From: a virus
DNA: 64,000 nt
Virus record (IMG/VR): IMGVR_UViG_3300049847_000416
Span: 31,141-95,140 of that record
Reading direction: 5' to 3' (one strand)
This document shows positions 12,307 through 29,235 of this stretch, piece after piece. The translations under genes and the position numbers were made by a program. Numbering within the stretch: the stretch's first letter is position 1; each line of letters starts with the position of its first letter. The notes beneath the pieces are model-generated. The model ran no database searches. It had not been told where the DNA came from and worked only from the letters and a program-made list of their open reading frames with translations.

Positions 12307-12309
12307 AGG

Positions 12310-12741
12310 TTATTCGTCATCTTTCTGGGTCACCCACGCGGGGACCTCGGTAGTAGCAACATAGCCAACAAAACTCGCGTGGTTGGCGAAGTACGCCAGC
12401 GGCGAGCCTGCAAAATCGGGATTCACCCGAGCATCAGCAAGCAGCGTGTCGAACCACATTGCCTTAGCCAAGTGATCGGCTGTATGGATGTCGTCCTCAC
12501 CCGGCGTTTTCAAAAGCTCGCGCAAGTACGGCATTTGCCACATCAACCGGTGGCGAGCCGCGTGCATCACCCGGTCTCGCACCCAGGCAATATTCCATGC
12601 CCCGTAATGCCAGTTCGGTCGATCCCCTGAGGGGGGATATTTGATGTGACCCTCAGCAAACACCGCGCCGACGGCGAACAGCGCGCCTCCAGGGATCAGT
12701 TCCACGCCGCTTTGGGTTACAACAGACGTGCCCCCTTTCAT
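12310..12741 (-). CDS. dATP/dGTP diphosphohydrolase-like protein (DUF5664-like)
   Basis: 'LIP..AL..V..VF..G..KY....NW..G', 'HAARH', 'DHLAKAMW'. Confidence 0.7.
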   Translation of the reverse strand: MKGGTSVVTQSGVELIPGGALFAVGAVFAEGHIKYPPSGDRPNWHYGAWNIAWVRDRVMHAARHRLMWQMPYLRELLKTPGEDDIHTADHLAKAMWFDTLLADARVNPDFAGSPLAYFANHASFVGYVATTEVPAWVTQKDDE

Positions 12742-13649
12742 TCAGACACCCTGAAGATCTGGTTGGCCAGACTAACCGCGATCAACTCGTGGTCTTCTGT
12801 GGTCATGTTGTCGATGTCGATAGTGTGACTGGAGTGCTCCCCAACCACGAAGTGGTACATGCGGTGTCTAACGCCCTGAAAGGTCTCGGTGACAACCGCC
12901 TGAGGATCCCACCCCGTAGGAATAAAATCATGCATGATGAAGTGGGTGCCTGCTGGTGTCCGCTTGAACTGTTCCGCCATGGCTGCCACGATATCAGGCA
13001 TGAGGTACATGAATACGGCGCTATTCGGCGGCAGGGTGGAAAAGTCGAATTCGAGGGCGTTCTGCTGCTTGACAGTGGCAGTGGTTACTGCCACTCCCAG
13101 TTTTGCTTGCACCTGAGCCAAGAGATGCGTGGCTGTAGCCACCTGATCAGAGTTGGTATCCACGCCGGCGACATTGGGAATACCCCGCTTCAACGCCAAC
13201 GCCAGCGCCCGCCCGTCGCCGCACCCAATATCAAAGAAGTGCTGGACGCCAGCCGGCAGCATGTCCAAGCCCTTCGTCAGGAAATCGATGGGTGTAGGGA
13301 CGTAGGGAGCCGTCAGCTTGGTGATTTCCCTGGGTCTGTTTTCGATGAGTTCACCCATGACACTCGTCATGTCCTGTAGGTGACAGGCGTAGATGCAGTC
13401 CAGGAACTTTTCGAAGCTGACGGTTCCGTGGATGTGCTGATCACTCATACTGGCGGCATACAAGATCGTAGCCACGTCTCGGATACAAGCGGGGGTCCAT
13501 CCCGACTTCAGGTCACAGTTAGCGATCCGCAGATACTTGAGCGCGGGTCCATTGAGTTGCAGATCGCGCGGCTTGTCCAATAGCACCCGGATTTTGATGC
13601 GTCCAGTGGTACGTCTGGCGGTGGACTTTAGGTAGATTGTTTTTGCCAT
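12738..13649 (-). CDS. class I SAM-dependent methyltransferase (protein Lys-MTase-like) with N-terminal extension
   Basis: 'FFDIGCGDGR', 'AGVD', 'NALEFDFS', 'VFMYL'. Confidence 0.8.
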   Translation of the reverse strand: MAKTIYLKSTARRTTGRIKIRVLLDKPRDLQLNGPALKYLRIANCDLKSGWTPACIRDVATILYAASMSDQHIHGTVSFEKFLDCIYACHLQDMTSVMGELIENRPREITKLTAPYVPTPIDFLTKGLDMLPAGVQHFFDIGCGDGRALALALKRGIPNVAGVDTNSDQVATATHLLAQVQAKLGVAVTTATVKQQNALEFDFSTLPPNSAVFMYLMPDIVAAMAEQFKRTPAGTHFIMHDFIPTGWDPQAVVTETFQGVRHRMYHFVVGEHSSHTIDIDNMTTEDHELIAVSLANQIFRVSE

Positions 13650-13838
13650 TGAGCTTTCTGGAGTAACAGATTGAGATTGGTTTGGTTGAAGGTAATGATA
13701 GCGACAAGGGAAGCATGTGCGTCTGCGTATTCTAGCAGACGGTCTGGAGAAATTTTCGCCAACTCCCCCGATGCCCGAGACATGCACTCTTGCATGTCTC
13801 GGATCACACTGGCGAGTGTAGGAGCTATGGGGGCCATG

Positions 13839-14744
13839 TTAGCGGCTGAACAGCGTCACTGGTCGGGGAAGCGGGGCAGCCGGGGCAGCCGGGGCAGCCG
13901 GGGCGTTCATGTTCAGCAGCGTTAGACGCCGCACGGTACCTTCCAACGCGGCTACCCGGTCTTCTAGGGATGCGGCAGACGGGGCGTCAGGTGAGGGAAG
14001 CGCACCCTTTACACCCACCAACCACGACCCTGTGAGTTCGAATCGCGCCCACTCCTCATCCGCGCGGAGCATTCGCTCCCGGACCGGAATTGAAACCGTG
14101 TTTGAGCCAAACACGTCCTCCGGGCGAGGACTGACGAATACCACAGTGTCCACTGGACCGGGCTCCGCGAAACGACCGGGATATCCGACACCGTTTTGTG
14201 TCTGGAGCGCCCGCAAGTCCCCACAATTAACCCAAAACGGGGCAGTCTTCGGACCGGTGACCTGGAACATGAACTGCCGACGGGGATCTCCGGCATCATA
14301 CATCACCTCGAACGGACCCGCAACACCATAATCCTGGACGGGACCAACTTGCCAGCCGGCCTGTGTCAGCGCAGCCGACAAGCTCGCCGCTTCCTCGGGG
14401 GTCGTCAGTTCCGCTGGGTTGATGGTGACCGGCAGCATTCCCGGTCCCTGGAATGTTTTGTGCTTGGTTGGTGGCAGTTCGAGCGGAAGGTACTTGCCAC
14501 CCGGAAGATTGGGGCGCGAGAAATCTTCAAACGGGGACACCTTCTGGTCTTTGTAGACCGGAGTTAGCGCCCCGCCCTCCGAATAGTATCCATACGCCTC
14601 GATTCCTTTCGGCAAACTGAGGTCCACCCAGTCTCTGTGCGGACGGGTGGGATCAAACGGCGGGAGATCGCTGCCGAACTTGGCTCGCCAAGTGTCGCGC
14701 GTGTACCGCGTAGCGGTGGTAAGAATTGTGCGAGGAGAGATCAT
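13839..14744 (-). CDS. hypothetical Pro-rich protein
   Basis: AGAAGGA RBS before ATG 14744; C-terminal coiled coil and PAA repeats. Confidence 0.7.
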   Translation of the reverse strand: MISPRTILTTATRYTRDTWRAKFGSDLPPFDPTRPHRDWVDLSLPKGIEAYGYYSEGGALTPVYKDQKVSPFEDFSRPNLPGGKYLPLELPPTKHKTFQGPGMLPVTINPAELTTPEEAASLSAALTQAGWQVGPVQDYGVAGPFEVMYDAGDPRRQFMFQVTGPKTAPFWVNCGDLRALQTQNGVGYPGRFAEPGPVDTVVFVSPRPEDVFGSNTVSIPVRERMLRADEEWARFELTGSWLVGVKGALPSPDAPSAASLEDRVAALEGTVRRLTLLNMNAPAAPAAPAAPLPRPVTLFSR

Positions 14745-14783
14745 GCTTATGTTTCCTTCTACGGTTTTAGTATACCACAAATA

Positions 14784-14814
14784 AAAGTGAGGCTGCCGGG
14801 TAAGGGCAGCCTCA
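14784..14814 (-). terminator. intrinsic terminator
   Basis: GAGGCTGCC/GGCAGCCTC stem followed by ACTTTT. Confidence 0.75.
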
Positions 14815-14835
14815 AAAACAGACGCGAGATGAAAC

Positions 14836-15330
14836 CTATCGTTCTTCGTACTTGATCGAGATGGTGACGACACCCGTCATCACACCTGTGTGAATGGCGA
14901 AGGCCTGGTTCATTCCGATTGAAGCATCCACGGGGATCGTCGTGGAACCACCGGCTCCCAGTGAAAACGCCTTGAAGATGATTTGCCCGGACGCAGCCGC
15001 CTGTGGCATGTTCGTCCGCACTTCCGAAAACCCCTGGAGGGTGTCTTGTAGGCCGACCGCCGCAATCACCGTTCCAGTAGTGGCAACAGTGTGGCGGATC
15101 TTTTGGGTAACCACACACGCCGCTGAGCACTCGATGTAAAACGACTGAATGCGGACTTGGCGTCCACCGTCTTTCAGAACGGTGGATACGGGGTTTACGA
15201 TGGACAACGCCGCTACCGAAGCAGCGGGAGACAGCGTAGCCGTCGCGACGAACGTTCGCGAGGTCAAAGAGGACTGGGCAAAGACACAGCCCCCCAGAGC
15301 GAACGCTACTAACAGCATTCGCGCGATCAC
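14836..15330 (-). CDS. secreted beta-rich protein (signal peptide)
   Basis: MIARMLLVAFALGGCVFA|Q; CxxxC pair in mature part. Confidence 0.7.
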   Translation of the reverse strand: MIARMLLVAFALGGCVFAQSSLTSRTFVATATLSPAASVAALSIVNPVSTVLKDGGRQVRIQSFYIECSAACVVTQKIRHTVATTGTVIAAVGLQDTLQGFSEVRTNMPQAAASGQIIFKAFSLGAGGSTTIPVDASIGMNQAFAIHTGVMTGVVTISIKYEER

Positions 15331-15332
15331 GA

Positions 15333-15809
15333 TTACACTCGCTCCACGGAGAATTCAACCACGATGCCAACAGGCACAGTGGTAACGATGGATCCACCGG
15401 TGACAGTCACCGTCAGGGCTCCACCATTGGCTCCCGCCGCTTTGTCCGGGGTGATAGACAGCGGAATCGCGACTCCAGCAGCCACCGCCGCCGTCAGGTT
15501 AACGGCTGCCTTGGCAACACCACCCACGTTGAGGGTGACGGTGAGCCCGCCGGCGAGCGGGGCAATGGCAGCGTCCGCAACCGCCGACACGCTATGAATG
15601 CGAATGCGCTTGGTGCTGGGCGGAACGTTCAGGTTGAGCGCCGGCTGACCGGCACGGGCGTTCAACAAGGCTTGACTGAAGTTATACACATACTTCAGGA
15701 CCTGATCCTGGTTTCCCAGCTTCTTGTGGTTCTGGTCGTCATGACCGCCAGGAATCAGCATACCGCTGTTCATCTGACGGTTGTAGTCGGCAATGTAGTT
15801 GGTGCTCAT
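15333..15809 (-). CDS. putative virion structural protein (Ala/Val/Gly beta-rich)
   Basis: composition; preceded by late motif at 15819-15826. Confidence 0.55.
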   Translation of the reverse strand: MSTNYIADYNRQMNSGMLIPGGHDDQNHKKLGNQDQVLKYVYNFSQALLNARAGQPALNLNVPPSTKRIRIHSVSAVADAAIAPLAGGLTVTLNVGGVAKAAVNLTAAVAAGVAIPLSITPDKAAGANGGALTVTVTGGSIVTTVPVGIVVEFSVERV

Positions 15810-15827
15810 GTCACTTTATAAGATCGC

Positions 15828-16217
15828 TCAAAACATGCTCAACGAAAAACTCTCGTACCACTGAATCTCCAACACGAGAGATTCCATCGCCGACTCGAAC
15901 ACCTTATCGATACTCAAACTGGTTTCCATCACGTCTCCCAGGCTGTCCTTGAGGAGAAATTTTCCGTTCTGATGCTGGATCTGCACACTCCAGAGCATTT
16001 CAGACAGCTTGCCAGCCGTCTCCTCCCAGAACGCCAGGTAACACTTTTCCTTGTGCATCATCAATCCCACGACAAACTGAAACCCATTGAACCGGTATCG
16101 ACAGGCGTACATGTTGGGTTGATCTGTGGCCGTGAACTGAATCTGAAACTTGACTTGCGCCCGTTGCGCAAACATCGGGAGACCTTCAGGGATCAAAAAT
16201 CGCTGCCAAATCTTCAC
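15828..16217 (-). CDS. hypothetical protein
   Basis: ORF overlapping upstream stop. Confidence 0.6.
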   Translation of the reverse strand: MKIWQRFLIPEGLPMFAQRAQVKFQIQFTATDQPNMYACRYRFNGFQFVVGLMMHKEKCYLAFWEETAGKLSEMLWSVQIQHQNGKFLLKDSLGDVMETSLSIDKVFESAMESLVLEIQWYESFSLSMF

Positions 16218-16423
16218 GCGCCGTACCCCACACGGACCGTCTGACCGGGGTACCAGCGTTGCACCATCGCGATCTTGCTGGCGATGTCTTGGTCCATCTC
16301 CCGGAGAGGTAGGACCCGGCGAGGAGGGCCGTCCCCATACACATACACGCCGTACTTGGTTGTGTGGCTGGAAAGTTGCTGTTTAGCGAGTTTGCGAAAC
16401 TCGTCCGTGGTGATGACTGACAT
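16214..16423 (-). CDS. hypothetical protein, leaderless
   Basis: TACTAT box 6 nt before ATG 16423. Confidence 0.55.
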   Translation of the reverse strand: MSVITTDEFRKLAKQQLSSHTTKYGVYVYGDGPPRRVLPLREMDQDIASKIAMVQRWYPGQTVRVGYGA

Positions 16424-16448
16424 GAACTTATAGTATAGCAGAAAAAGC

Positions 16449-16475
16449 AAACGGACCCCGCTGCGGAGTCCGTTT
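16449..16475 (-). terminator. intrinsic terminator
   Basis: AAACGGAC/GTCCGTTT stem followed by GCTTTTT on minus strand. Confidence 0.7.
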
Positions 16476-16503
16476 CAAATTGCTGACGGGAAATGTACGG
16501 GAC

Positions 16504-16738
16504 CTACGAGGGGCGGATAGCCGCGCCCAATGCAGCGATCTTGTCAGCGATGCTGTCAAAACGGGCTGCGACGGCATCTTCGGCTTCCGCCGAAATCCCA
16601 CCAGCCGCCAGCGCCTTGACCAACTCTTCCTTCGTGCTGTTCAACTCTGCCAAAATGGCGTTGACGCCAGCTTCGACCTGTTGTTCGCCCTGTTCCAGCC
16701 TAGCTGCGATTTCATCGAACTTTGTTTTGGTTGCCATG
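16504..16738 (-). CDS. small coiled-coil protein
   Basis: AAAGGA RBS before MATKTKF. Confidence 0.6.
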
Positions 16739-16850
16739 TGTCCTTTCTGCACCTCGCGTTGGAGATGCTTAATTTCATTTAGAACCACGTCCAATGTGTT
16801 CCGAACACCTTCGACATCTTTGGACGCCACAATCTTCCACATACCTGAGT

Positions 16851-17174
16851 TCATGATACCACAGGTTTGCGCCGACGCCGGGCCGGGTAGGCTCGTAGAA
16901 AGGCATTCGTCAAATGCTCGACGGTGGACTCCACCGCAGCTTTGGGTTTGTCCCAGCGATGCATCAGGATATGACACAACTCATGGACAAGTACCCGCTC
17001 CATAATGCGGGGGTTGCCAGGCAGCAAACTGATCTTTGCAGAGTAGTTCGGATCCCACTCACAATGGCCAGCGGTGGGCAAGGTCGCATCAACGACGACG
17101 GTGATGCTCCAGTCGTCGAGCAGCATTCGCTCTTGCCAGACTATCGCCAGTGCTCCGACCTGTTTCTTGGTCAT
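16851..17174 (-). CDS. zincin-like metallopeptidase
   Basis: 'LVHELCHIL' HExxH plus downstream E. Confidence 0.65.
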   Translation of the reverse strand: MTKKQVGALAIVWQERMLLDDWSITVVVDATLPTAGHCEWDPNYSAKISLLPGNPRIMERVLVHELCHILMHRWDKPKAAVESTVEHLTNAFLRAYPARRRRKPVVS

Positions 17175-17449
17175 TGCCCCAACCACCGTACTGACCCAAG
17201 AATCCCCACGACGGTGCCCAGCACACCGCCCGCCGCGTAGAAGAACCACAGGAGCAAAGAGTCTTCGTCCTTGTTTTTGATGAGTCGCCGAAACACGAAG
17301 AATTGAAGAGACGCGAGGGTGAAGTCTACGACGATGGAAGTGGGTATGTTGGCCTGACTCACCGAGCGCCAAGATACTGTGCAGAGGCCCCAGCTTAGAA
17401 ACTGGGACAGGCCCATGTAGCAGGCCTCTTTCCAGGGATAGTTTTTCAC
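17171..17449 (-). CDS. small multi-pass membrane protein
   Basis: three hydrophobic segments. Confidence 0.65.
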   Translation of the reverse strand: MKNYPWKEACYMGLSQFLSWGLCTVSWRSVSQANIPTSIVVDFTLASLQFFVFRRLIKNKDEDSLLLWFFYAAGGVLGTVVGILGSVRWLGQ

Positions 17450-18723
17450 ATCCCCTCCGACACGTTGAAGATGGCAGTGGCGATCAACCCGTGTTCCGCA
17501 TTGTAGACAAAGGCCTCAGCCCTACGCAGGTTGCCAATGTAGAACTTTGCCGCATGCCAGATGTCTGACGGGGTTAAAGAACTGATGCGGCGAACAATGC
17601 AGCCGGGGAACTCGTCCACCTGGGTCTTGTGGAGATGTCCCAAAAACACCTCGTGGAATTTGGTAGCCCCCCAGATTTTTGGCTGGTCTGCCGCGAAGAT
17701 CTGGGCATAGTTGGTAGAGCGTGGCGCATCGCCGTGGGTGAACATAAATGCACATTGTCCCCAGGTGAAGTACTTGCGGTTGACCGGGGCGTTCCACACT
17801 TCGACAGAGGGAGTCGCACGATAAGCCAGTTCCAGACTGTGGCCCAAGTGCCACACGGAATTGGCATCATGATTGCCGGCTACCGGGATTACCACGACGC
17901 GGGGAGCATACTCCCGGCACCGGGCGATGGCCTGTTCGACCATGCGGAACCCTCGCAGGAAATTTTCGTGGTATGTGGAGCTATAATCAATGCGGGTGCC
18001 ACCCGTGGTCATGCCTTGCGGATTGTCAATGTGGAGGAAGTCGTTTCCCACGACCAGGACAATCGTCTGCGGGTTGTAGTCTTTCGTACGTTCCAGAAGA
18101 GAGTGCGCCGACGTGTGAAACAGGGTCTCGGCAATCTCGGGCGTGTAGGCCGCGCAACCTGTTTCAGCGGATACGCCGGGTTTCCCAATGTGCAGATCTG
18201 AGATGCTGAGAACTACGCAGTTCTGCTTGACATTCTTGGCGCAGAAATTTTCTGTGAACTTCCGGGGTCTGACAATCACTTCGGCGGAAAGCCGAGCGAT
18301 CTCATCGAGCGCGATACTCGCTTCGACATTCAGGACAAACTTGGCTTGACAGCGGCGCAGCAAGGTCTTGACGAGTTTTTGCGACCGCTTGTCTTTGATG
18401 AAGCCTTCCCAATCGGTTCCGTTCCATTGCACGCACTTCCATCTACGCAGGTCAATCCCACGTTGAACCGCCATCTCTTCCGGCGTCAGGGCTGGCCCGA
18501 CATAATGGACGGATACGGTGTCCGCTGTGCGCGTTTCAGTAACCTGCGTTTCTACAGCTACACTGGGGGCAGAGTCCTGGGGTTCGTCCTTGGGGGTATG
18601 CGGCTTCTGCTTCGATAGCGCCAGCGCACAACGCCGGCTGCACACCTTTGTGCGGGAGTCTCCCGCAACAAAGTCACGGGAGCATACCTCGCAAGGCTTT
18701 AGTATATCTTTCTTTCTCGCCAA
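17446..18723 (-). CDS. calcineurin-like metallophosphoesterase with N-terminal zinc ribbon
   Basis: 'SDLHIG', 'GNDFLH.D', 'GNHD', 'HGD', 'GHLH'; CxxC...CxxxC at N-terminus. Confidence 0.85.
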   Translation of the reverse strand: MARKKDILKPCEVCSRDFVAGDSRTKVCSRRCALALSKQKPHTPKDEPQDSAPSVAVETQVTETRTADTVSVHYVGPALTPEEMAVQRGIDLRRWKCVQWNGTDWEGFIKDKRSQKLVKTLLRRCQAKFVLNVEASIALDEIARLSAEVIVRPRKFTENFCAKNVKQNCVVLSISDLHIGKPGVSAETGCAAYTPEIAETLFHTSAHSLLERTKDYNPQTIVLVVGNDFLHIDNPQGMTTGGTRIDYSSTYHENFLRGFRMVEQAIARCREYAPRVVVIPVAGNHDANSVWHLGHSLELAYRATPSVEVWNAPVNRKYFTWGQCAFMFTHGDAPRSTNYAQIFAADQPKIWGATKFHEVFLGHLHKTQVDEFPGCIVRRISSLTPSDIWHAAKFYIGNLRRAEAFVYNAEHGLIATAIFNVSEGM

Positions 18724-18755
18724 TATAACCTCACAGATAAAGATCGTTAGGGGAT

Positions 18756-19289
18756 CTAGGGGATCAGTTTGGCGAACGGAGCCACCGTACCACGGTACTC
18801 ACCAAAAAACAGGCGAGTGTCACAGCCCCCGACAGGGAGACTGATTGTGCGGTTTGGAACCGCGAGAGCTTGCACAATAGACGCCGGCGTCTGCACCGGT
18901 CTGAATTCCTGGGCCAGGCGGCGGAACGTCGCGCCACCCAAAGCACTGAAGTACCGCATCTGCGGCCCCTTGGACGGACCCGGCAAGGTACTCAATGCAT
19001 CAGACAGGAATCCAAGAGCCAGAAACAGCTTGTGCTTCTTGTTGGGCTTGTGGGCTGTCTCTAAAATCGTAAGATTCAGTGCTGGCGAAATCACGGAGAT
19101 CTGATCCACCTGGATCAGCCGACCTTCATCTACCGCGAGGGCTGCCGTAGTTGGGTTGCATACTGTGACCGAGTACAAACCAACACGGTGCTGCTTTTCT
19201 CCCACGGCTGACCGGAACGTGCTCAGCGGTACGTGAGAGTATTGGGCCACCGCCTGCGCCAGCGTAGCAACGACAAGGGGAAGGATCAT
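18756..19289 (-). CDS. putative secreted protein
   Basis: MILPLVVATLAQAVA|Q; two Cys. Confidence 0.6.
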   Translation of the reverse strand: MILPLVVATLAQAVAQYSHVPLSTFRSAVGEKQHRVGLYSVTVCNPTTAALAVDEGRLIQVDQISVISPALNLTILETAHKPNKKHKLFLALGFLSDALSTLPGPSKGPQMRYFSALGGATFRRLAQEFRPVQTPASIVQALAVPNRTISLPVGGCDTRLFFGEYRGTVAPFAKLIP

Positions 19290-19451
19290 CTACGCCTCTT
19301 GGCGGCTGCGTTCACGCAGAAGCAAAAGGCGGCAGCGACCGCCCAACCGAGACAGAACTGTAGTATGGTGATGATCATACGCTTAGTGTATCACACTGTG
19401 GAAAAGGACGGGAGAAAGCTCCCGTCCCAGCCCAGAACAAACCAAACAAAA

Positions 19452-19652
19452 TCAAGACAGCTTTTCCCACGCGGCTTGCACACGCTTCCACTGCTGGATG
19501 TCGCGGATCCCCGATTCCAGACGTGCAATATACCGGTTGAACTCGACCCCGAATGCGTTGAGACGCACGTCGTCCGTGGGAGCAGCCGCCGGCACTTCCT
19601 CTGCCTTCCGGCGAGCCCACTGGATCCATGCCCTACGCGTAATACTGATCAC
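19452..19652 (-). CDS. hypothetical protein
   Basis: overlaps upstream stop. Confidence 0.55.
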   Translation of the reverse strand: MISITRRAWIQWARRKAEEVPAAAPTDDVRLNAFGVEFNRYIARLESGIRDIQQWKRVQAAWEKLS

Positions 19653-19945
19653 GGAGCCAGGAGAGTGATCTCAGGCAGACTGTCCACAGTAGGACTGTCC
19701 ATCACCCACCCCTGGTTTTGAAAGGCGTCCCGGAGGATGCTATACAAATCCCCTTGCTGGCTGGACGCCCACAGAGGAGCAGTCTCAACCAGAGTCGCGT
19801 AGGAGAAAGGCACAACAACCCCGGACGGAGCCCCGAGCGCTTGCATTGTCGCGAGCAGCTTGGCTGCTAGCACGTTCCCTTGCTTGACCAGAGCAGCCCC
19901 CTGGACATCGCTGGGTTTCGGAATCGTTAGTGTGATAGATGGCAT
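19649..19945 (-). CDS. hypothetical protein
   Basis: ORF in operon. Confidence 0.6.
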   Translation of the reverse strand: MPSITLTIPKPSDVQGAALVKQGNVLAAKLLATMQALGAPSGVVVPFSYATLVETAPLWASSQQGDLYSILRDAFQNQGWVMDSPTVDSLPEITLLAP

Positions 19946-19947
19946 GA

Positions 19948-21168
19948 TTACATTGACACCACGAACACCCGACCTGCGCCACCTGCGCCACCTGCGCCAG
20001 AGGTAGTAGGAGGCCCTCCAATACCAGCGCTACCGCCGCCGCCGCCGCCACCAGGAACACCACCGGCACCACCGGCACAACCAGAAGTAGTAGTGGTCGA
20101 ACCTCCACCTCCGCCCCCTTCGCCTCCACGCAGATCTGTATAGCTAGTCCCGGCTGTTCCAGCCGTGCATGTGATACCGTTGTTGCCTGTAGCTGTTCCA
20201 ATGATGACGGCTTCAATGGCTCTAGCAGACGCACGAGCGGAAGCCGAAGTGGTACCAGCCGCACTCGTCCCACCGCCGCCACCTCCTGCACCTGCTCCAC
20301 GCAAACTAGATTGGGCGGTAACAACAGGTGCTGCTACAGCAGCAGCCCCATTACCCCCATTCACTCCTGGGATCTGGTTAGGGGACACCCCAAGCACGGC
20401 ACCGGCACCACCAGCAGCGGCAGCAGTGCCACCACTTCCACCACTAGGCGCATTAGCCGGAGCGAAAAGAGTACCAAAGCTGCTCAAGCCTCCTGTACCT
20501 CCTGAAGCCCCATTAGCTGGTGAAATGGCGGGTGCCCCCGCACCCCCACCGGCACCTACAGTAATGGTCACCTGTGAAGGGAGTGCCGAGCACGCGAAGT
20601 CCATGAAGAACATCGGAGAACTTGCGCCACCTCCCCCGCCACCATGAATCTGCACGGCCACGTTGTCAACACGGCCTGATCCCCCGCCACCACCTCCATG
20701 CCAGAGGTACACAGACACCTTACCGCATTTATCCGGTTTCTTCCACGTGCCGTTTGCCGCGAACATCTGATAGTTAGCGCCGTTATCCGCTACAGATTGC
20801 TGAGTAATCAACTGCCACAAGTTCTGCTCCCCATTCCACTGACAAGTGAAACTTGGGTAAACCGAGGTGGGTACCCCGTCGGGGGCGGCGGGGAGCGCCG
20901 TAGGGCAGTCCCAGTTGGAAGAGATTGTAATCGTCGAGATCGGGAAACCGCTAACGTTAGAAATCGTGATGCGCTGACCATCTACAATCCCAACGTCCAC
21001 TACCACCGGAAGGGCGGCGGCAGACGGATTCAACCGAACGTTGATCTGCTTGTCACCAGTTATCGGGACCGTAAACCCGGCTGTGAGATTGGTGATGTTG
21101 TAGGTAACTGTGTCGGTCTGACCAACCAAAACTGATGAAGCCACACAGGCGAGGAAAAGTAGTCTCAT
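19948..21168 (-). CDS. glycine-rich tail-fibre-like protein with signal peptide
   Basis: MRLLFLACVASSVLVG|Q; 'FAANGTWKKP...GGGGGGGSG...TITVGAGG...GAGGAGRVFV' glycine-rich phage domain. Confidence 0.8.
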   Translation of the reverse strand: MRLLFLACVASSVLVGQTDTVTYNITNLTAGFTVPITGDKQINVRLNPSAAALPVVVDVGIVDGQRITISNVSGFPISTITISSNWDCPTALPAAPDGVPTSVYPSFTCQWNGEQNLWQLITQQSVADNGANYQMFAANGTWKKPDKCGKVSVYLWHGGGGGGSGRVDNVAVQIHGGGGGGASSPMFFMDFACSALPSQVTITVGAGGGAGAPAISPANGASGGTGGLSSFGTLFAPANAPSGGSGGTAAAAGGAGAVLGVSPNQIPGVNGGNGAAAVAAPVVTAQSSLRGAGAGGGGGGTSAAGTTSASARASARAIEAVIIGTATGNNGITCTAGTAGTSYTDLRGGEGGGGGGSTTTTSGCAGGAGGVPGGGGGGGSAGIGGPPTTSGAGGAGGAGRVFVVSM

Positions 21169-21182
21169 AGTAATTTCCATAT

Positions 21183-21641
21183 CTAGAGCTTGTTCACAAT
21201 GAAACGAATGTTGTAGCTTGCCGTGCCAGTGGTGCAAGTATTCCCAACCGTAGTTTCGTAGGAGATATCTTGGCCTGAGGCCAAATGAACGAGGATGCTA
21301 CCAGACACATACCTCCGAGTAATACCAACTACTCCGCTACTCGCCTGCACAGAGGGACTACTGAAGATTCTGGCACCACCATCATTCCAGCGCAAGCGAA
21401 TAAAGTTGGTGGTGAATCCAGTTGTGCAAGCCGCATTCATCCACATGTGGTAGTCAATTCTACGCAAACCAACCGCGCCGCTCGTGACGAGATTGGTCTG
21501 TGCAACAGACGCTGAAGACGCACTAATTGTAATGTCTGCCTCAGGAGGAGCGGCTGCCCCACCTCCACCGCCACCCGTGCTGCCCGTCGATTGTGCGAGG
21601 AGTGCTGTTGCCAGCACTCCAATCATGAAAAGGTATCGCAT
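21183..21641 (-). CDS. secreted beta-rich protein (signal peptide)
   Basis: MRYLFMIGVLATALLA|Q; TAATG coupling to giant gene; two Cys. Confidence 0.75.
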   Translation of the reverse strand: MRYLFMIGVLATALLAQSTGSTGGGGGGAAAPPEADITISASSASVAQTNLVTSGAVGLRRIDYHMWMNAACTTGFTTNFIRLRWNDGGARIFSSPSVQASSGVVGITRRYVSGSILVHLASGQDISYETTVGNTCTTGTASYNIRFIVNKL

Positions 21642-24600
21642 TACTTTACCTGACCTCCGAAGAACACGGACGCGGACGCTGTCTGAGTGAAACACCCGGT
21701 CGTCGAGAACACGGCCACAATTCCTGTGGAGAAGTGGGCTGGGTACGTTTGATGGCTGAGACTCGTGGTCTGGTTGGCTGGAGCCACCACGCAGTGCACC
21801 GGAGTAACCGGCCCATCGGCGGGTGCTGTAGTTGAGTTGAACAGCATCAGATACCCGGCTGTGGCTCCCACCGTCACGTGCAGGCTGTACAGATTACCTG
21901 CACTCGTCTTCAGTGCGATGCTGGACGTAATCGCAGGCGAGGCCACCGGCAACAGAGCGTTTGCAGCCAACGAAGTTGGTGCGTTGATAATCTCCGTGCG
22001 TCCGCTGGCGTCACGAACTTCGGGGTTCGCCACTGCGATGGGGCCTTGCCCCTGGGAGGGACTCGTGAACCATGACAAATTCACAGAACCCGACGTATAA
22101 GAAGTGGCTCTCAAACGCACGTCCACCAAACCCACGGTGTTGATCGTGCCAATAACCGGCCCAGTAAAAGGCCCGTATGTGAGAACTTCGCCACCCGTGG
22201 CCCCACTGACTTGCACCGGAATGCGAATCCATGCAGTGCCACCCTGTCTACCCTCAACTACCAGCGAGGCCACAAATGGACCCGCGTTGGACAATCTAAA
22301 GGACATGCTGGGAGACCCTGGGGGCACAATCAAAGACGCTGACGAATTGGCTGTTGGTGTACCTGTGATGAGCGTTTGACCAAACCCGGTTGACGTGGTC
22401 ACTGACGCCACGTCAGCAGCAGATATCACGGCACCCGCCGATCCGTTGGCGTAGCTACCCTGCACTGCAAACAGCGGTTGACTAGCCGTACCACCCTGCC
22501 CATTCGGAGACAGGCTAACAGGTACTGAGGTTTCTGTGCCATCCGTGGAAGTGGATGGGGGCACAAGCGTCAGGCTATTGATCCCGTCTGACTGCTGCAC
22601 AGTGAAAGGTGTTGCGGCATCGTTTTGATCGACCTTCAAACCATCCTGAACCTTTACAGCGTTCAAGACAGCTTTCAACACGCCATCGGGCATCGTTGCG
22701 AACTGAACATCCGCTTGACCAGTCATCGGTGCAATCGAACGAACGCGGATACGAATCATACCCGAAGTGCTAACCAATCCAGAGAAAGGGCTTGTGAAAG
22801 TTGAAGCAGCAGTCGTTACTCCCATCTGGTGTAGAGGCAACCGGGTCCAGTAGGCATTGTCAAACGTACCTTCGACTGCTAGAGTGCCCGTGAACGTATT
22901 TGTCACCTGAATGTAAGCCGCGTTCACCTGAGACAGTCCGCCAAGATCATGGAAAGACAGGGCCGTCGGTGTTCCAGTGACGACGATCTGCCCATTTGCA
23001 ACCGCCACAGCGGTTGACCCTGCGTCTTGAGTGGTGATGGCCGTGATGCTGGTAAGAGCCTGTCCACGGTTAGCGAGAACTGTACGCAGCGTACCGGCGT
23101 CAGAAACTCCGTAGTTGACGGAAGGCGCGATGTTGTTGATCCCCAGCAAATTCGTAGAAGATACCAGAGCGTCAGGAATGTGGTCCCCGGAGTACAGCGT
23201 AGTAACCGTAAGCAGACCTCCGGTAATCGCACTGTTTACCCGCATTTTCACAAAGCGATATGGCGTGTTAACAACGAAGAACTTAGCTGTGTTATTTGCC
23301 ACAACCGGCTGGAGCGCGACAAAACCAAACTCCTCATCTCTCACAGAAAGAGTATAGTAGTCCGTCCCGTTGTTGGACCCTTGGAAGACGTAGGAGCCGC
23401 CAGTGACACCAGAGCCGGTAACGCCAATGCGCAAAGAGCGCACCGCATAACCCACGCCGGTCTGCTGAAGGTCCACAGCATCAGCCGATCCATCCTTAGC
23501 CAGGAGATTACCACCCACTACGGTTACGCCCGTGGTGGTCACGGTAATTTCCTTGGATGGCGGAACGTTGCGATACCCGCCGATTTCGATGTACCCGGTC
23601 CAGGTTGCCAAAGACGGATCCGCTGCTACGCTCGCACGCAAATAAGGTGCGTCGGTCACGAAGCTGAAAAATCGATTCCACGCATTAAACTTGTATGTGG
23701 TAGTTGGACGCCACGTAACTGCGTCGTTGCTTTCTTCCACTGTGATCGTCGATGTCAGCGCATCCGATGTTGCGGAAGCTTGAGCCGGAATAGACACCTG
23801 CCAATAACGGCAACCCCGCATTGAAGCAGGCTGCCCACTCGGGGTAGCAATACCCGTGTTCTTGTCAATCGTCTGATCGTAGCTCCACGGTGTACCTCCG
23901 CCCACGCCGGGATTCCAGGTATCCCGGCAAAGTGCTTCATTGGCGGTATACAGCGTGTTCTGCTGATTGCTAATCGGACGGGTGCCAGACCCATCTGCTT
24001 TGGAGCTTGCGTACTGATCATGGGCAGCATACTTGAACTGTCCGCTTGCTAGATTCCACTCAACAGGAACATGCGCCTGTCGCCAACCATCCAAACGGAC
24101 GGTGTAAACCGCACCAATCGGACCAGTGCTGTTAACACGAAGTTGGTTTGCACCAAAGCCGAGGACAGACGGCTGAATAGCGAAGTCTCTGTAGCCCGGT
24201 GAAACGAGAGTTCCGCTCAGGTTGACTCCCCCAAATCCGGCGGCGGTGTGCAATTCGTACACCCCAGAGGAGCTAACCGTACCAGCCGCGTTCGCAGCTT
24301 CAATAAATGTGGCATGTGAACCCGCCGTGTTCACACCAGGTAGAATCATTCTCCAGAACATGCACCCGCGAACATCGGAGACAGACTGGCTCTTGTTGTC
24401 GTAGAAGGCTGACGCAACCGGCGCGCCGGTACCTGTGAAGGTGTACGTGATGGAGCAATCTGGCACCGGCTGAGAAGAAGAGCTACTCACTTGAACCAGA
24501 CCGCCCAGGATCGGCAGCTTTTCAGATACCGTAACGTAGGATTTCGTGATCACAACATTCGCAGTTCCAGTCATAACAGCGGTTGACCGAACGCGGACGT

Positions 24601-27600
24601 TCGTCATGCCCACCGTGCTCACGGTTCCTTGGAAATTCTGAGTGAACGACGTACCAGGGGCAACCATCTCCGTTTGAGAAACAACCGCAGGCGTCCAGGT
24701 AGTTCCATTGTCCGCTGAGACTTCCAGACGAACCGTACCCGTCCAGGTTCCTTTGACCAGGACATGCACGGATGGGACGCTCACGAGGCTGATTGCCGCA
24801 GCAGAGAGCGCTGTAGGCGCTCCCGTGATGAACAACTGACCGTTGGCACCAACAGACTGCACAGAAACGATGTCCTGTGTGCTGATCGAGATGCTATTCA
24901 CCTGATCCTGTGGGCCGACAGTGTCCACCAACAGGCGATTGGTGAGAGGGGACTTCGGGAGATTGTTCACCGACACATCATTGACGCCGACTGTCTTGAT
25001 GATGGAAACGCCCACCGTACCTGAAGTCCAACTCAACAGGCGAATGCGGTAGTGGGTCGCACCCAAGGTGGATACCACGCCCACGAACGAATTTTCGTTG
25101 GCAACAGGGGACACAAAAGACGTAGCATTGTAAGCCACTCCATTCTGCTGAACAGAGGCGGGTGTGTAGGTCAAGCCACCGTCGAAGCTGATCTCTGAAC
25201 TGATAGCCGACACACCAACCTGAACCGCAGTCACCCGGATAGCGGAAACAGACGACAGAGGGAACACCGCTGCGGAACCGGCGTCAGGGACACCAGCAAA
25301 CGTCTGTTGACCATTCGCCAGAGTGGTGGTAACCACTGTAGCGTCATTCACCGTCAAGGTGATCGGACCAGCCGTTGTGTCAGCAGCAGCCGCTGTATTG
25401 ACCTGGAGCACACCTCCCGAAATGGGGAGCTTTTCCTGCAAAGGGCTGTAGGTCGCCAGGAGTACAACGTTAGCCGTACCAGTCATGACAGCGGTGGAGC
25501 GCACGCGAATGTGTGTAGCACCATTCACAGAGACAGCGCCCACGAAGTTGGCAATAAAGGAAGTCGCCGGAGCCGTAGTATTGGTTTGGGAAACGGCTGT
25601 AGGCACCCACGTGGTTCCACCATCAATGGAGGTTTCCACCTGCAAAGTACCGGTCCAGATTCCGGTCACTTGGATACGCGCCGTCTGGTTGCTGGTAAGC
25701 GTGGCCTGCACGAAGGACGCAACGGTAGGAACACCCGTAATCAAAGACTGCCCGTTCGCTCCAGCAGTTGATACAGACACAATGTCCTGGGCTGTGATCG
25801 CCGCAGAAGTGGAGGTGTCGGGCGGGTTCTGAGCATCCACTTGAACGCGGCTGGTGACCGTGTTCTGGGGCAGATTCGAGATAGACACAGAGGACGGCCC
25901 TGCCGTCTTGACCACGGTAACACTGAGTGTACCAGAGGTGAACGTGGTGACACGAACTCGCAGATGAGTTGCACCCTGCGTGTTGACCGTACCCACCAAG
26001 TTCATCTGGGTGCCGACTGCACCGGTCCAGGCCGAGAAAGGCTTGACAACCTCAGGCTGCAATATGTCTGCCCGGTAGAATCTAACACCACCGTCGAAGC
26101 TGACTTCAGCCACCGCAGTACCGATCATGTTTCCAGTCGTTTGCAACTTCACAAGGGGAACGGACGCCAGAGTGAACAAAGCTTCAGAGCCGGCAGTAGC
26201 CAAGCTTCCGTTGGTGAAAGTTTTTCCGTTGGCGAGAGTGCCTGAGGTGGTTCCGCTGTCATCGACGGTAAGAACAACCGGACCTGCGGTGGTGTCCGCA
26301 GCCGATGCCGTGTTCACCTGAACCTTGCCGCCCACGATGGGCATTTTGTCTTTGGCTGTGGTATAGCGGGCGTACAGCGCAACCTGCGCAGTTCCGGTAT
26401 GAACAGCCGTCTCGCGGATTCGGACGCCCACGGCACCCTGGGTGTCCACGGTTCCAGCAAAATTCTGCGTAAACAGTGTGGAAGGCGCAACGGTGTCAGT
26501 CTGAGACACGGCTACAGGGATCCAGATGGTTCCGTCATAGGTGATTTCCGCTTGCAGGCTGCCCGTCCAGGCGTTTGATGCCTGAACCACCACTGAAGGA
26601 ATGTTGTTCAGTGTGGCGGTTGCGAAAGATGCAGCGGTAGGAACACCAGTCACAAAAGACTGGCCGTTCGCCCCGGCTGCGGTAACCGAAACAACGTCCC
26701 GTGCGGTGATGTTGCTGGTGCTGAGCAGCGCATCGGGAACAGGAGCCGTCTCCACCTGAACGCGGTTGAGAGCGCTCTTGGGTAAGTTGTTGATGGAAAC
26801 GACGCCGGCAGTCGGGCTCTCCACAATGGAGACAGCCGCATTTGCGGCGGTGAACGAGGTGCAACGAATCCGGTAGTGAGTGGCTCCCGCCGTGTTCACC
26901 TTACCCGTGATCTGGTCTTCAGTACCTGTGGTGGTAAAAGCCGAGCTACCGATGGAGGTGCCTTCTTGGAGCACGGGGGCCGGGAACCAAGTCCCGCCTC
27001 CGTCAAAGCTGATTTCAGACAGCAACGTACCAGCGAAACCACCGGTGACCATGTTCACCTGTACAGAGGCGGCAGACGCCAGTACGAAGGCCGCAGCGGA
27101 TCCCGCTGTGGGAACACCAATCGTGTAAGTCTGGCCATTCACGCCGGTGGTAGTAACCGCCACGGCGTCTTGCGCACTGATGTTGATCGTGGCAGACGGG
27201 ATGTTTGCGGGAGCGCTGGCCCCGCTCACCTGGAGCTTGCCGCCCAAGATGGGCAACACCTGTGGTCCCGGCTGGTAAGACGGGACGAGGGACACAATCG
27301 CTGTGCCAGTCATAGCGGCGACCGCACGGATACGCAGGTTCGTCGCACCAACCGTATTCACTTGGCCGATGAAGTTCTGGGTGAAGGAAGAGGACGTGGC
27401 CGTAGAATCGGCCTGCACAACGACTGCCCGCGTCCAGGTGACGCCGCTGTCAATCGAAGTTTCTACCTGGAGGGTACCGCTCCACGTACCCTTCGCCTGA
27501 ACCATGGTCGTTTGGTTGCCGATCAAGGCAACCTGTGCAAAAGAGTTCACGGTCGGCGGTCCATTGGTGAAGAACGGTTGCCCATTGGCTCCCGCTGAAG

Positions 27601-29155
27601 TGACAACCACGGCGTCTTGAGTCGTGATGTTGATGGCGCTCGCAACACCGTCAACCGGAACGCTCACCTGAACTTTATTGTTCGAGATGGGCAGCTTGTC
27701 GGGGACCGCACCTGAGGACTTCACGAACGCCACTGACGCGGAACCCGTCATGACAGCAGTCGAGCGCACGCGCACGTCGGTTGCGCCAATAGTCGTCAAG
27801 GAAGCGATGAAATTCTGGGTGAAAGAACTGGCTGGAGCAGTGGTGCCAGTCTGTGAGACAACAGTCGGGGTCCAATTCGCCCCGTTGTCCATCGAAGTTT
27901 CGACCTGGAGGTTTCCCGTCCAGGTTCCGGTGACTTGGATCCGTGTGGTTTGGGTACCACTGAGGGTAGTCGCCGCGAAGGATGCGGCAGTCGGAACACC
28001 AGTCACCAAGCTTTGGCCATTGGCAGCGGCAGCAGTAGCGGACACGATGTCCTGCGTAGTAACCGCAACGGCGGCAACTGCTGTGTCTGCTGTACTGGTG
28101 GCAGCGGCGTAGCGCCACTCGTTAGCGGTTGAGTTGTAAGTTACCGGAACCGGAGCCGTGCGCCAGCCATCGACCCTAATTTGATACACGATACCCGTGC
28201 CGCCACGAGTGCGGACGCGCAACATACCTACACCATTGGAGGTAGCAGTGACGTTCGGAACAACCGCAACGTCTTGGTACCGGCTGGTGGCGTGGGTACC
28301 AATCAAAGACGGCACACCTCCGCCGTCCAGGCGATAGAACCCGTTGACGCTGGTCGTACCAGCCAATGTTCGCCCCTCAAGCGTTAAAGCAGCCATCAAA
28401 GCCGCAGAGGTATTCGGCAGCATGACGATACGCCAGAAAGTGCAACCCCGTCGATCCGCAGCCGACTGCGGAGCATTCGAGTAATCAGCGCTAAACAAAT
28501 CCGTTGCCGCACCGGCTCCCGTGAATGTGGTGGTAAAAGAACAGTCGGGCGTGCTCAAACTCGCTTGTGGAACGGTGGAGAGCAGTTCGGCGGGGGGTGT
28601 TCTGAAACCAAACAACTTGGCTTCGAGTGTCGTAGCTCCCGCAGCCGTATACGTCAGGCGCAGCCAGGGCGTGTAGCCAGACAGTACGGCTGCGCCGTAG
28701 CCAACGGCTTCAGTGGAAGTCTGAGACCCGTTGACGGGGGTGAGACCAGACGTGGCGTACACACCAGGAGTACCGCCCACATCCGCCGCCGTTTGGAGGT
28801 TGACGGTAGTGGACGTGGTGTTAGGGTGGTTCCACACCAGCACCCAATACCGGCAGGACGTAGTCGCGGCGCTGTTCGTGCGATTGTCCAAATCGGTGGA
28901 CGTACCGCTGGTGGCGGCGGCTGTGACAGAGTAGGTCAGAGCGCAGTCGGCAGAAGCGGTGGACCCAGCCACCAGCAAATTTCCAGACGCGTCCACCTTG
29001 AGCGTTTGTAGGACTAGGCCGGGGTCAATGCCCTGGACCGCGACGGGATTCGTCACCGTAACCGCACCCGAAGCACCCGAACCACCCCCGGACGGGGGAA
29101 ACTGAGCGAACGCCGAAGCGGTCAATAGCGAAACAGCAATCCAAATCTTGCGCAT
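21641..29155 (-). CDS. giant (~2,500 aa) repeat protein with signal peptide; fibre/adhesin-like
   Basis: MRKIWIAVSLLTASAFA|Q; about 15 beta modules, ten of them 'QD....ANGQ...G.PT..S...WTGTLQVE.S.D.G.TW'. Confidence 0.85.
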   Translation of the reverse strand: MRKIWIAVSLLTASAFAQFPPSGGGSGASGAVTVTNPVAVQGIDPGLVLQTLKVDASGNLLVAGSTASADCALTYSVTAAATSGTSTDLDNRTNSAATTSCRYWVLVWNHPNTTSTTVNLQTAADVGGTPGVYATSGLTPVNGSQTSTEAVGYGAAVLSGYTPWLRLTYTAAGATTLEAKLFGFRTPPAELLSTVPQASLSTPDCSFTTTFTGAGAATDLFSADYSNAPQSAADRRGCTFWRIVMLPNTSAALMAALTLEGRTLAGTTSVNGFYRLDGGGVPSLIGTHATSRYQDVAVVPNVTATSNGVGMLRVRTRGGTGIVYQIRVDGWRTAPVPVTYNSTANEWRYAAATSTADTAVAAVAVTTQDIVSATAAAANGQSLVTGVPTAASFAATTLSGTQTTRIQVTGTWTGNLQVETSMDNGANWTPTVVSQTGTTAPASSFTQNFIASLTTIGATDVRVRSTAVMTGSASVAFVKSSGAVPDKLPISNNKVQVSVPVDGVASAINITTQDAVVVTSAGANGQPFFTNGPPTVNSFAQVALIGNQTTMVQAKGTWSGTLQVETSIDSGVTWTRAVVVQADSTATSSSFTQNFIGQVNTVGATNLRIRAVAAMTGTAIVSLVPSYQPGPQVLPILGGKLQVSGASAPANIPSATINISAQDAVAVTTTGVNGQTYTIGVPTAGSAAAFVLASAASVQVNMVTGGFAGTLLSEISFDGGGTWFPAPVLQEGTSIGSSAFTTTGTEDQITGKVNTAGATHYRIRCTSFTAANAAVSIVESPTAGVVSINNLPKSALNRVQVETAPVPDALLSTSNITARDVVSVTAAGANGQSFVTGVPTAASFATATLNNIPSVVVQASNAWTGSLQAEITYDGTIWIPVAVSQTDTVAPSTLFTQNFAGTVDTQGAVGVRIRETAVHTGTAQVALYARYTTAKDKMPIVGGKVQVNTASAADTTAGPVVLTVDDSGTTSGTLANGKTFTNGSLATAGSEALFTLASVPLVKLQTTGNMIGTAVAEVSFDGGVRFYRADILQPEVVKPFSAWTGAVGTQMNLVGTVNTQGATHLRVRVTTFTSGTLSVTVVKTAGPSSVSISNLPQNTVTSRVQVDAQNPPDTSTSAAITAQDIVSVSTAGANGQSLITGVPTVASFVQATLTSNQTARIQVTGIWTGTLQVETSIDGGTTWVPTAVSQTNTTAPATSFIANFVGAVSVNGATHIRVRSTAVMTGTANVVLLATYSPLQEKLPISGGVLQVNTAAAADTTAGPITLTVNDATVVTTTLANGQQTFAGVPDAGSAAVFPLSSVSAIRVTAVQVGVSAISSEISFDGGLTYTPASVQQNGVAYNATSFVSPVANENSFVGVVSTLGATHYRIRLLSWTSGTVGVSIIKTVGVNDVSVNNLPKSPLTNRLLVDTVGPQDQVNSISISTQDIVSVQSVGANGQLFITGAPTALSAAAISLVSVPSVHVLVKGTWTGTVRLEVSADNGTTWTPAVVSQTEMVAPGTSFTQNFQGTVSTVGMTNVRVRSTAVMTGTANVVITKSYVTVSEKLPILGGLVQVSSSSSQPVPDCSITYTFTGTGAPVASAFYDNKSQSVSDVRGCMFWRMILPGVNTAGSHATFIEAANAAGTVSSSGVYELHTAAGFGGVNLSGTLVSPGYRDFAIQPSVLGFGANQLRVNSTGPIGAVYTVRLDGWRQAHVPVEWNLASGQFKYAAHDQYASSKADGSGTRPISNQQNTLYTANEALCRDTWNPGVGGGTPWSYDQTIDKNTGIATPSGQPASMRGCRYWQVSIPAQASATSDALTSTITVEESNDAVTWRPTTTYKFNAWNRFFSFVTDAPYLRASVAADPSLATWTGYIEIGGYRNVPPSKEITVTTTGVTVVGGNLLAKDGSADAVDLQQTGVGYAVRSLRIGVTGSGVTGGSYVFQGSNNGTDYYTLSVRDEEFGFVALQPVVANNTAKFFVVNTPYRFVKMRVNSAITGGLLTVTTLYSGDHIPDALVSSTNLLGINNIAPSVNYGVSDAGTLRTVLANRGQALTSITAITTQDAGSTAVAVANGQIVVTGTPTALSFHDLGGLSQVNAAYIQVTNTFTGTLAVEGTFDNAYWTRLPLHQMGVTTAASTFTSPFSGLVSTSGMIRIRVRSIAPMTGQADVQFATMPDGVLKAVLNAVKVQDGLKVDQNDAATPFTVQQSDGINSLTLVPPSTSTDGTETSVPVSLSPNGQGGTASQPLFAVQGSYANGSAGAVISAADVASVTTSTGFGQTLITGTPTANSSASLIVPPGSPSMSFRLSNAGPFVASLVVEGRQGGTAWIRIPVQVSGATGGEVLTYGPFTGPVIGTINTVGLVDVRLRATSYTSGSVNLSWFTSPSQGQGPIAVANPEVRDASGRTEIINAPTSLAANALLPVASPAITSSIALKTSAGNLYSLHVTVGATAGYLMLFNSTTAPADGPVTPVHCVVAPANQTTSLSHQTYPAHFSTGIVAVFSTTGCFTQTASASVFFGGQVK

Positions 29156-29235
29156 ATGATGTCTACCTGATAGTATCGGCAGCCTCACATCTGTGTGGGC
29201 TGAACAAGCGGTTCAGAAATTTTCTGAGCCCACCA

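Follow-up and report, generated by a model that had tools for sequence, protein, structure and literature searches.

The DNA analysed here, referred to as the window, forms the final 64 kb of one virus contig of 95,140 bp (IMG/VR record IMGVR_UViG_3300049847_000416). A 14-kb stretch of its minus strand, located upstream of terL, contains all five genes of the phage whose products begin with a predicted export leader followed by Gln. These genes encode a giant protein, p152, a Gly-rich protein of 406 residues, p177, and p164, and together they occupy about 10 kb of the 95-kb genome. Their coordinates, and those of the domains of the giant protein, are as follows.

21641-29155, minus strand: giant gene, 2504 aa (P0001); annotated frame has the best codon score; homologues P0006 and P0008
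29105-29155, minus strand: predicted signal peptide of the giant protein, MRKIWIAVSLLTASAFA followed by Gln (n/h/c-region scan)
28088-28972, minus strand: Cys-pair modules A1 and A2 (residues 62-356); C71, C101, C205, and C238 invariant in three homologues
24470-28075, minus strand: eight B repeats in tandem, about 150 aa apiece (residues 361-1562); every one contains an Asp-box-like SxDxGxTW
23477-24490, minus strand: Cys-pair modules A3 and A4 (residues 1556-1893); pairs 1567/1598 and 1743/1782 kept in P0006
21965-23050, minus strand: B repeats 9 and 10 (residues 2036-2397)
21644-21958, minus strand: C-terminal domain of the giant protein with Cys pair 2455/2488; conserved in P0006, replaced in P0008
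21183-21641, minus strand: p152 (P0002); predicted signal peptide MRYLFMIGVLATALLA followed by Gln, Gly-rich linker, TNF/C1q-like jelly roll, one Cys pair
19948-21168, minus strand: 406-aa protein (P0003); predicted signal peptide MRLLFLACVASSVLVG followed by Gln, small N-terminal domain, Gly_rich_2 domain, six mature Cys
18756-19289, minus strand: p177 (P0004); MILPLVVATLAQAVA followed by Gln; weakest candidate, no charged n-region
14836-15330, minus strand: p164 (P0005); fMet-IARMLLVAFALGGCVFA followed by Gln; also fits a lipobox, L-G-G-C

Five N-termini with the features of export leaders

The five genes start at positions 29155, 21641, 21168, and 19289 (ATG) and 15330 (GTG) on the minus strand. 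All five N-termini combine an uncharged core of 13 to 14 residues, small residues at positions -3 and -1, and Gln at +1, the residues from -3 to -1 being AFA, LLA, LVG, AVA, and VFA, respectively. Arg or Lys precedes the core in four of the five; p177 lacks any charge in this region. Leaders were called with a crude scan for n-, h-, and c-regions applied to the approximately 133 non-overlapping open reading frames (ORFs) of the whole 95-kb genome. The scan flagged exactly these five proteins and, elsewhere, only three charge-less, membrane-like segments. Finding five hits among 13 consecutive ORFs out of 133 has a probability of about 5 × 10–4 (hypergeometric, all window positions allowed for). 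These results agree with the sequence-only reading of the window, which had proposed five signal-peptide-like starts with Gln at +1 and had ranked the one at 19289 as the weakest.

The position of the starts was confirmed by several observations. The codon-usage score was highest in the annotated frame for each of the five genes. The next in-frame Met codons are located 60 to 240 residues downstream, within conserved sequence, and later starts would delete those residues. Public gene calls for p152 and p164 begin a few residues later, yet retain the hydrophobic core. Leaders are also kept in homologues while their sequence drifts, as established for P0006 and P0008, which are related to the giant protein, and for a p164 homologue at 66% identity. 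Judged by their length, the hydrophobic cores are too short to span a membrane.

The mature proteins contain 11 (giant), two (p152), six (406-aa protein), two (p177), and two (p164) cysteines. In the giant protein and in the p152 family, conserved cysteines occur solely as pairs within modules, a pattern that looks like structural disulfides. The earlier statement that the cysteines are mostly paired stands; the only unpaired Cys of the giant protein (C765) is not conserved in P0006. No type IX secretion system (T9SS) or PEP-CTERM sorting domain was detected in any of the five proteins (Pfam and NCBIfam, E up to 0.01), NCBIfam gave no match for any protein of the cluster, and no enzyme domain was found in the five proteins with Pfam and NCBIfam. 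BLAST comparisons indicated that the small leader proteins are not paralogues of one another. Together, the conserved leaders, the conserved Cys pairs, and a Gln at +1 that is typical of the likely host (see below) support the earlier proposal that these proteins would be exported by the Sec pathway and fold under oxidising conditions.

Domain composition of the five proteins

In the giant protein, the leader is followed by a Gly-rich linker, modules A1 and A2, eight B repeats, modules A3 and A4, a further stretch, two more B repeats, and the C-terminal domain. The DC...RGCxFW modules that had been noticed in the sequence are present in four copies. Cysteines form the pairs 71/101, 205/238, 1567/1598, 1743/1782, and 2455/2488, each inside one module; the later pairs are kept in P0006, in which the odd Cys 765 is replaced by Ile. 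Two relatives were identified among 5.8 billion proteins, P0006 (2507 aa, 56% identity) and P0007/P0008 (1461/1471 aa), the latter matching at 46% across the first 84% of a 400-residue query. Scans of genome, viral, and metagenome contigs for relatives of the giant protein returned none. The leaders of P0006 and P0008 differ in sequence but follow the same design, and the mature start in all cases is QFP(P)SGGGG. Comparison of the homologues revealed that the N-terminal third is retained and that the C-terminal part is swapped between phages.

An AlphaFold model of the B repeat, built on the ten copies, had a pLDDT of 82. It superposed on YomS from SPbeta (Z 13.2; root-mean-square deviation (rmsd) 1.8 Å, 99 residues) and on the XepA C-domain from PBSX (Z 12.9), with rmsd values of 1.8-2.0 Å over 99-100 residues for the two matches; the next match had a Z of 8.0, and the TM-score obtained with Foldseek was 0.65. 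The 150-aa repeat therefore has the same fold as these two Bacillus subtilis proteins (PDB 6i56 and 6i5o; PMC6834076), although sequence similarity to XepA or YomS is not detectable. XepA forms pentamers and has one or two of these domains. In the giant protein, by contrast, ten copies are present in a single chain of 2504 residues together with Cys-paired modules, and the host is a diderm. The profile of the ten repeats retrieved no PDB sequence at E < 0.1, nor did the A and B profiles, the 406-aa protein, or two proteins of the viral contig G005 (see below) give a match when used to search PDB sequences. The fold is common to many uncharacterised phage proteins. The B repeat was not found in 301 Acidobacteriota genomes, which gave a single weak match, and therefore looks like a phage-type domain.

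The ATG codon of p152 overlaps the stop codon of the giant gene by one base. The mature part of p152 consists of a domain of about 115 residues that an exhaustive HMMER search recovered at the extreme C-terminus of 50-odd proteins of 100 to 1600 residues. Two Cys residues are invariant in this family, and about 18 full-length members begin with a leader followed by Gln. The model of p152 (pLDDT 87) is a TNF/C1q-type jelly roll. Structural matches included 4-1BBL (Z 9.4), C1qA (8.7), PRD1 P5 and the Bdellovibrio fibre tip (8.4), and BclA (7.4), middling Z values that support assignment to the fold class only; Foldseek retrieved C1QL3 with an E of 5 × 10–4. Knobs of the TNF/C1q-like type cap phage and predator fibres. 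The HMMER search also returned a 1367-aa metagenome protein (P0129) in which a leader-like segment (MKKSVNDLRTFFVLQLIAVLVAG...) is repeated in tandem about 13 times. It may reflect an artefact of assembly or of repeats, or be an unusual repeat protein.

The glycine-rich domain of tail-fibre type that had been assigned to the 406-aa protein was recovered as Pfam PF21722 (Gly_rich_2), with a score of 55.9 bits for a cut-off of 24.3, over residues 164-426 of the long ORF. The protein gave further matches to PHROGs annotated as tail fibre or minor tail protein. Its Gly_rich_2 relatives (n = 119) are mostly phage tail-fibre-like proteins, and about 95% of them lack a leader. Since only about five of the 119 have one, the leader of P0003 is a derived and unusual feature.

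For p177, no relatives were found, the model was poor, and Atlas provided nothing usable. The leader of p164 contains a lipobox-like Cys followed, four residues on, by the type I site VFA before Gln. In its one relative (66%), the corresponding segment is retained as IIGGCVMA before Gln, with a lipobox-like I-G-G-C. The mature fold of p164 is shared with virus-only Atlas clusters (TM-score of 0.72).

The late arm, the likely host lineage, and leader proteins in other phages

On the minus strand of the window, two uncharacterised genes are followed by the giant gene and the genes for p152, the Gly-rich protein, p98, and p177. The next genes encode an Mre11-like exonuclease, a membrane protein of small size, an HExxH protein, and a number of other small products, and precede the genes for p158, p164, p344, a methyltransferase, and an intein/HNH protein. 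These are followed by terL, which contains a LAGLIDADG intein, and by the genes for a sigma factor, the portal, an Amidase_2 protein, MuF, the prohead protease, and the capsid. Past the left edge of the window are a 2150-aa tape-measure protein and tail-tip genes (products of 334, 881, and 408 aa), then replication genes. The tape-measure and tail-tip genes identify this soil phage, by gene content, as a long-tailed siphovirus. The leader genes are located upstream of the packaging and head genes, outside the tail module. Other features of this arm are as follows.

29171-29178, minus strand: CGATACTA, late-promoter-like motif, 15 nt upstream of the ATG of the giant gene
17446-18723, minus strand: Mre11/SbcD-like exonuclease, in the middle of the leader-bearing cluster
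16851-17372, minus strand: small HExxH (HELCH) protein, in the middle of the leader-bearing cluster
15819-15826, minus strand: CGATCTTA motif, 10 nt upstream of p158, at the head of the p158-p164-p344 run

The cluster had been described as part of a structural arm. The exonuclease (phrog_704, E 2.5 × 10–60), the HExxH protein, and other proteins encoded in this span have no signal peptide, so the region is a late arm rather than a purely structural cluster. An exonuclease gene is also found beside leader-bearing genes in phages phi18:3 and Tunturi 1, which are described below.

On the minus strand, the motif CGATNNTA precedes the giant, p158, sigma factor, portal, protease, and capsid genes, at distances of 10 to 45 nt from their starts. 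Its total count is 24 for 15 expected by chance, a modest excess, although the positions are striking. The motif had been reported in front of the capsid, portal, and TerL genes as well as the giant gene. This holds for the capsid and the portal; the copy at terL (9054-9061) lies just within the longest terL ORF. Sharing of the motif with the starts of head genes suggests that the leader cluster and these genes form one late class, which is perhaps read by the sigma factor of the phage itself (6044-6676, between terL and the portal gene). No Shine-Dalgarno sequence follows the motif at the late genes. Since the motif is only 10 to 45 nt from the starts, late mRNAs may be nearly leaderless (window positions 132-29178, minus strand).

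Other genes of the window were also considered. The head module contains a peptidoglycan amidase gene (Amidase_2, 4003-4659), located between the portal gene and MuF, whose product has no leader. No spanin pair was recognised across the whole genome. At least two inteins are present, one of LAGLIDADG type in terL (6625-9069) and one of HNH type in the 643-aa protein encoded upstream (9261-11192). An 895-aa helicase (L001:11526-14213) gave mixed 'terminase' and helicase PHROG matches and may hide a third intein. The 360-nt gap between p98 and p177 (19290-19648) contains no convincing ORF in the frame of the gene strand; one alternative minus-strand frame was mildly positive in codon usage. INPHARED contained no close phage, whether searched by DNA or with the giant protein as the query, and the capsid gave matches only at 30% identity or less. 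A scan of IMG/VR with the portal identified a single relative of 4.4 kb.

The rule that Gln follows the signal peptidase I site (Q-rule) has been published as specific to Bacteroidetes (PMC5837995; PMC10653852). The later of these papers states that it is not applicable to other phyla (PMC10653852); Acidobacteriota are covered by neither. A Bacteroidota host, which the Q-rule had first suggested, was rejected since early genes (55-63 kb) have AGGAG ribosome sites and relatives of the phage domains in genomes all belong to Acidobacteriota. Scanning one genome per species for about 186,000 species with the p152-family profile revealed six loci, all in Bryobacterales or Terriglobia. In 400 kb of one Bryobacterales genome (20 segments of 20 kb from a single metagenome-assembled genome), 21 of the 54 leader-like N-termini had Gln after a permitted -3/-1 site. 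The counts for other residues at +1 were four for Asp, three for Arg, two for Lys, one for Asn, and none for Glu, and Gln accounts for 4% of the proteome. The host is probably a member of the Acidobacteriota, as judged from base composition, the style of the leaders, and a single domain family. Gln at +1 is a cleavage-site habit of this likely host lineage, which argues that the leaders are real sites read by the host peptidase; the sequence-only reading had not recognised this origin of the Gln. These observations also suggest that the habit extends from Bacteroidetes to Acidobacteriota.

The p152-type domain of Bryobacterales is present in chromosomal proteins that consist of a leader, Gln, collagen-like (GPT)n repeats, and the knob. 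Their loci adjoin genes for GT2 and GT87 glycosyltransferases and are not in prophages. In the fibre proteins of the Bryobacterales loci L009-L011, the C-terminal knob is homologous in sequence to p152 and resembles C1q, TNF ligands, and BclA in fold. In contrast to these fibres and to BclA, p152 has a short Gly-rich linker, no collagen stalk, and is encoded by a phage. The L009-L011 locus encodes, in order, an Ig-rich leader protein of 1150 to 1740 aa, the leader-(GPT)n-C1q-like knob protein, and a 1300-aa protein with a leader and Gln; with its flanking GT2 and GT87 genes, it looks like a surface-fibril or slime locus.

Three viral contigs containing a p152-type domain (G003, G004, and G005) each have runs of genes for large proteins that begin with a leader followed by Gln. 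They have no relation to the phage of the window beyond shared domains. In G003 (99.9 kb, complete), three such proteins (1798, 768, and 1682 aa) are encoded at the end of the structural arm, one of which has a short, weak N-terminal match to a beta-helix family of pectate-lyase type. In G004 (39 kb), a leader-bearing pair is located between the head and tail genes. In G005, a podovirus fragment, the capsid gene is immediately followed by a gene for one leader protein, and five further ones come behind the genes for the ejection proteins. The region following the ejection proteins is the usual place for fibre genes.

Tunturi 1 (PP887698; PMC11924767) is a cultured Acidobacteriota phage that has a similar GC content (55%) and also encodes large leader-bearing proteins in the tail region, but differs in being a podovirus and in having no homologous domains. 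The leaders of gp12, gp13, and gp17 (region 10371-23028) end in Ala before Gln, and these proteins have 20, 10, and 32 Cys; gp14, a 'tail spike', has a leader and 21 Cys. Leaderless structural proteins of Tunturi 1 have 0 to 7 Cys. The paper describing the phage makes no mention of signal peptides (PMC11924767). In the first 50 kb of Tunturi 4, a siphovirus cultured on Acidobacteriota, the tail proteins lack leaders, and this phage has no homology to that of the window.

Phage phi18:3 of Cellulophaga (NC_021794) provides a second comparison, since gp085, gp086, and gp087 are large, have a leader with Gln at +1, and are encoded side by side upstream of lysis genes, terL, and the portal gene, an arrangement similar to that of the window. 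In GenBank, they are labelled as structural or tail proteins 'based on experimental MS/MS proteomics analysis' (MS/MS, tandem mass spectrometry). Unlike the phage of the window, phi18:3 is a podovirus of a Bacteroidota host, and its proteins have no homology to those of the window. Signal peptidase I sites followed by Gln are also found in Bacteroidetes Q-rule substrates, including proteins of Porphyromonas gingivalis phages (PMC10367356; PMC5837995). The latter phage proteins are small and of unknown function (PMC10367356), whereas those described here are large, fibre-like, and likely produced in an Acidobacteriota host. Signal peptides have been reported to be rare in phage genomes, and target proteins of phage diversity-generating retroelements, tail-fibre types included, have been noted to lack them. 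Full-text literature searches turned up no account of tailed-phage fibres that bear a leader.

Probable export and possible docking at lysis

In the textbook view, tailed phages are assembled entirely within the cytoplasm, and none is known to construct parts outside this compartment. The features of the N-termini indicate that the five late proteins are very probably exported. The host Sec translocon would export them, and signal peptidase I would cut before Gln. The exported proteins would fold in the oxidising periplasm, each module being locked by a disulfide, and would thus complete their maturation away from the cytoplasm, in which heads and tails are built. We infer both cleavage and disulfide formation. 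In a final step, the proteins would dock on finished particles when the holin and endolysin breach the envelope, and would form peripheral appendages, either side fibres or glycan-binding decorations.

Docking at lysis is the outcome that we favour, tentatively, over a role in the envelope outside the virion. This preference is based on the proteomics of phi18:3, the fibre-like domain types, the swapped C-terminus of the giant protein, and the genomic cost of the cluster. The occurrence of leaderless Gly_rich_2 relatives in tail-fibre PHROGs and the motif common to the giant gene and the head genes also favour docking. More broadly, it is conceivable that tailed phages of Acidobacteriota and, in parallel, of Bacteroidota possess a second, extracytoplasmic branch of morphogenesis. 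Outer fibres or decorations would be secreted via Sec, disulfide-bonded and perhaps capped by pyroglutamate in the periplasm, and clipped on at lysis. The window would represent the siphovirus version of this branch, with a 2504-aa appendage of ten XepA-like domains.

Several considerations weigh against assembly of these proteins onto particles. The leader calls were made with a heuristic, not a trained predictor, in a phage known from its genes alone. XepA, the closest solved relative of the repeat of the giant protein, is a phage protein that appears late, crosses the membrane, and is encoded beside the lysis cassette, but is reported to be absent from PBSX particles (PMC6834076). The two precedents are therefore opposed, since gp085-087 of phi18:3 were detected by MS/MS on particles, although this detection could come from co-purifying envelope material. 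The tail-tip genes downstream of the tape-measure gene are leaderless, so the phage may need no further fibres. Searches with Pfam, PHROGs, NCBIfam, and PDB sequences revealed no baseplate- or capsid-attachment domain after the leaders, but such domains are often missed. The p152 domain is also part of the chromosomal, non-prophage surface-protein loci of Bryobacterales. Finally, to our knowledge, no mechanism joins periplasmic proteins to particles made in the cytoplasm.

The main alternative is that the five proteins are exported but never become parts of the virion, acting late in infection on the envelope or slime layer of the infected cell. Possible roles are assistance in lysis, as proposed for XepA, the binding or masking of surface glycans against loss of progeny on debris, and loosening of the matrix. 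Llp of phage T5 reportedly keeps progeny from being lost on debris by such surface binding or masking. We consider this alternative somewhat less probable than docking. The sequence-only reading had offered remodelling of the infected cell's surface as its alternative to fibres or decorations being added at or after lysis, and such a role stays a serious contender. Many of the preceding observations fit it. The repeat of the giant protein matches XepA and YomS at a Z of 13, tail-tip genes without leaders are present elsewhere in the genome, and p152-type domains are found in host surface-protein loci beside glycosyltransferases. The weak pectate-lyase-type match in a G003 leader protein and the moron-like position of the G004 pair point in the same direction, as does the reading of the leader proteins of P. 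gingivalis phages as modifiers of the host surface (PMC10367356). Four observations are difficult to reconcile with an action outside the virion. The cost would be very high, with a gene of 7.5 kb and, in G005, more than a third of the DNA examined. The domain types and the pattern of a conserved N-terminus with a variable C-terminus are those of receptor-binding fibres. The leader proteins of phi18:3 were annotated from MS/MS on particles, and no enzyme domain was detected in the five proteins of the window with Pfam and NCBIfam.

It is improbable that the N-termini remain uncleaved as signal anchors, holding the proteins, or the assembly of fibres, at the inner membrane, or that p164 is instead a lipoprotein processed by signal peptidase II. 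The L/I-G-G-C motif within the leaders of p164 and its homologue and the lack of a charged n-region in p177 are in keeping with this possibility. Anchoring is at odds with cores of only 13 to 14 residues that are followed by polar, Gly-rich linkers, and with the conservation in diverged homologues of small residues at -3 and -1 and of Gln at +1, as expected of a cleavage site. Chance or mis-annotated starts, which would leave the proteins in the cytoplasm like ordinary tail fibres, are very improbable: the calls come from a home-made heuristic and the public starts of p152 and p164 are slightly shorter, but the core survives in these shorter versions, the next Met codons are distant, the leaders are conserved and clustered, and Gln at +1 in five of five fits the habit of the host.

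The largest and most fibre-like late proteins of this phage appear to be built for export, and the same applies to unrelated phages of the same host phylum. Cultured systems exist in which their fate can be followed, Tunturi 1 on Tunturiibacter and phi18:3 on Cellulophaga. If the proteins are not parts of the virion, about a tenth of the genome would be devoted to secreted proteins acting on the envelope or matrix, which would form a large, unexplored class. If docking occurs, assembly of these phages would include a step that crosses compartments and permits disulfide-stabilised receptor-binding gear processed by the host, which would matter for predicting host range and for engineering phages in soil bacteria.

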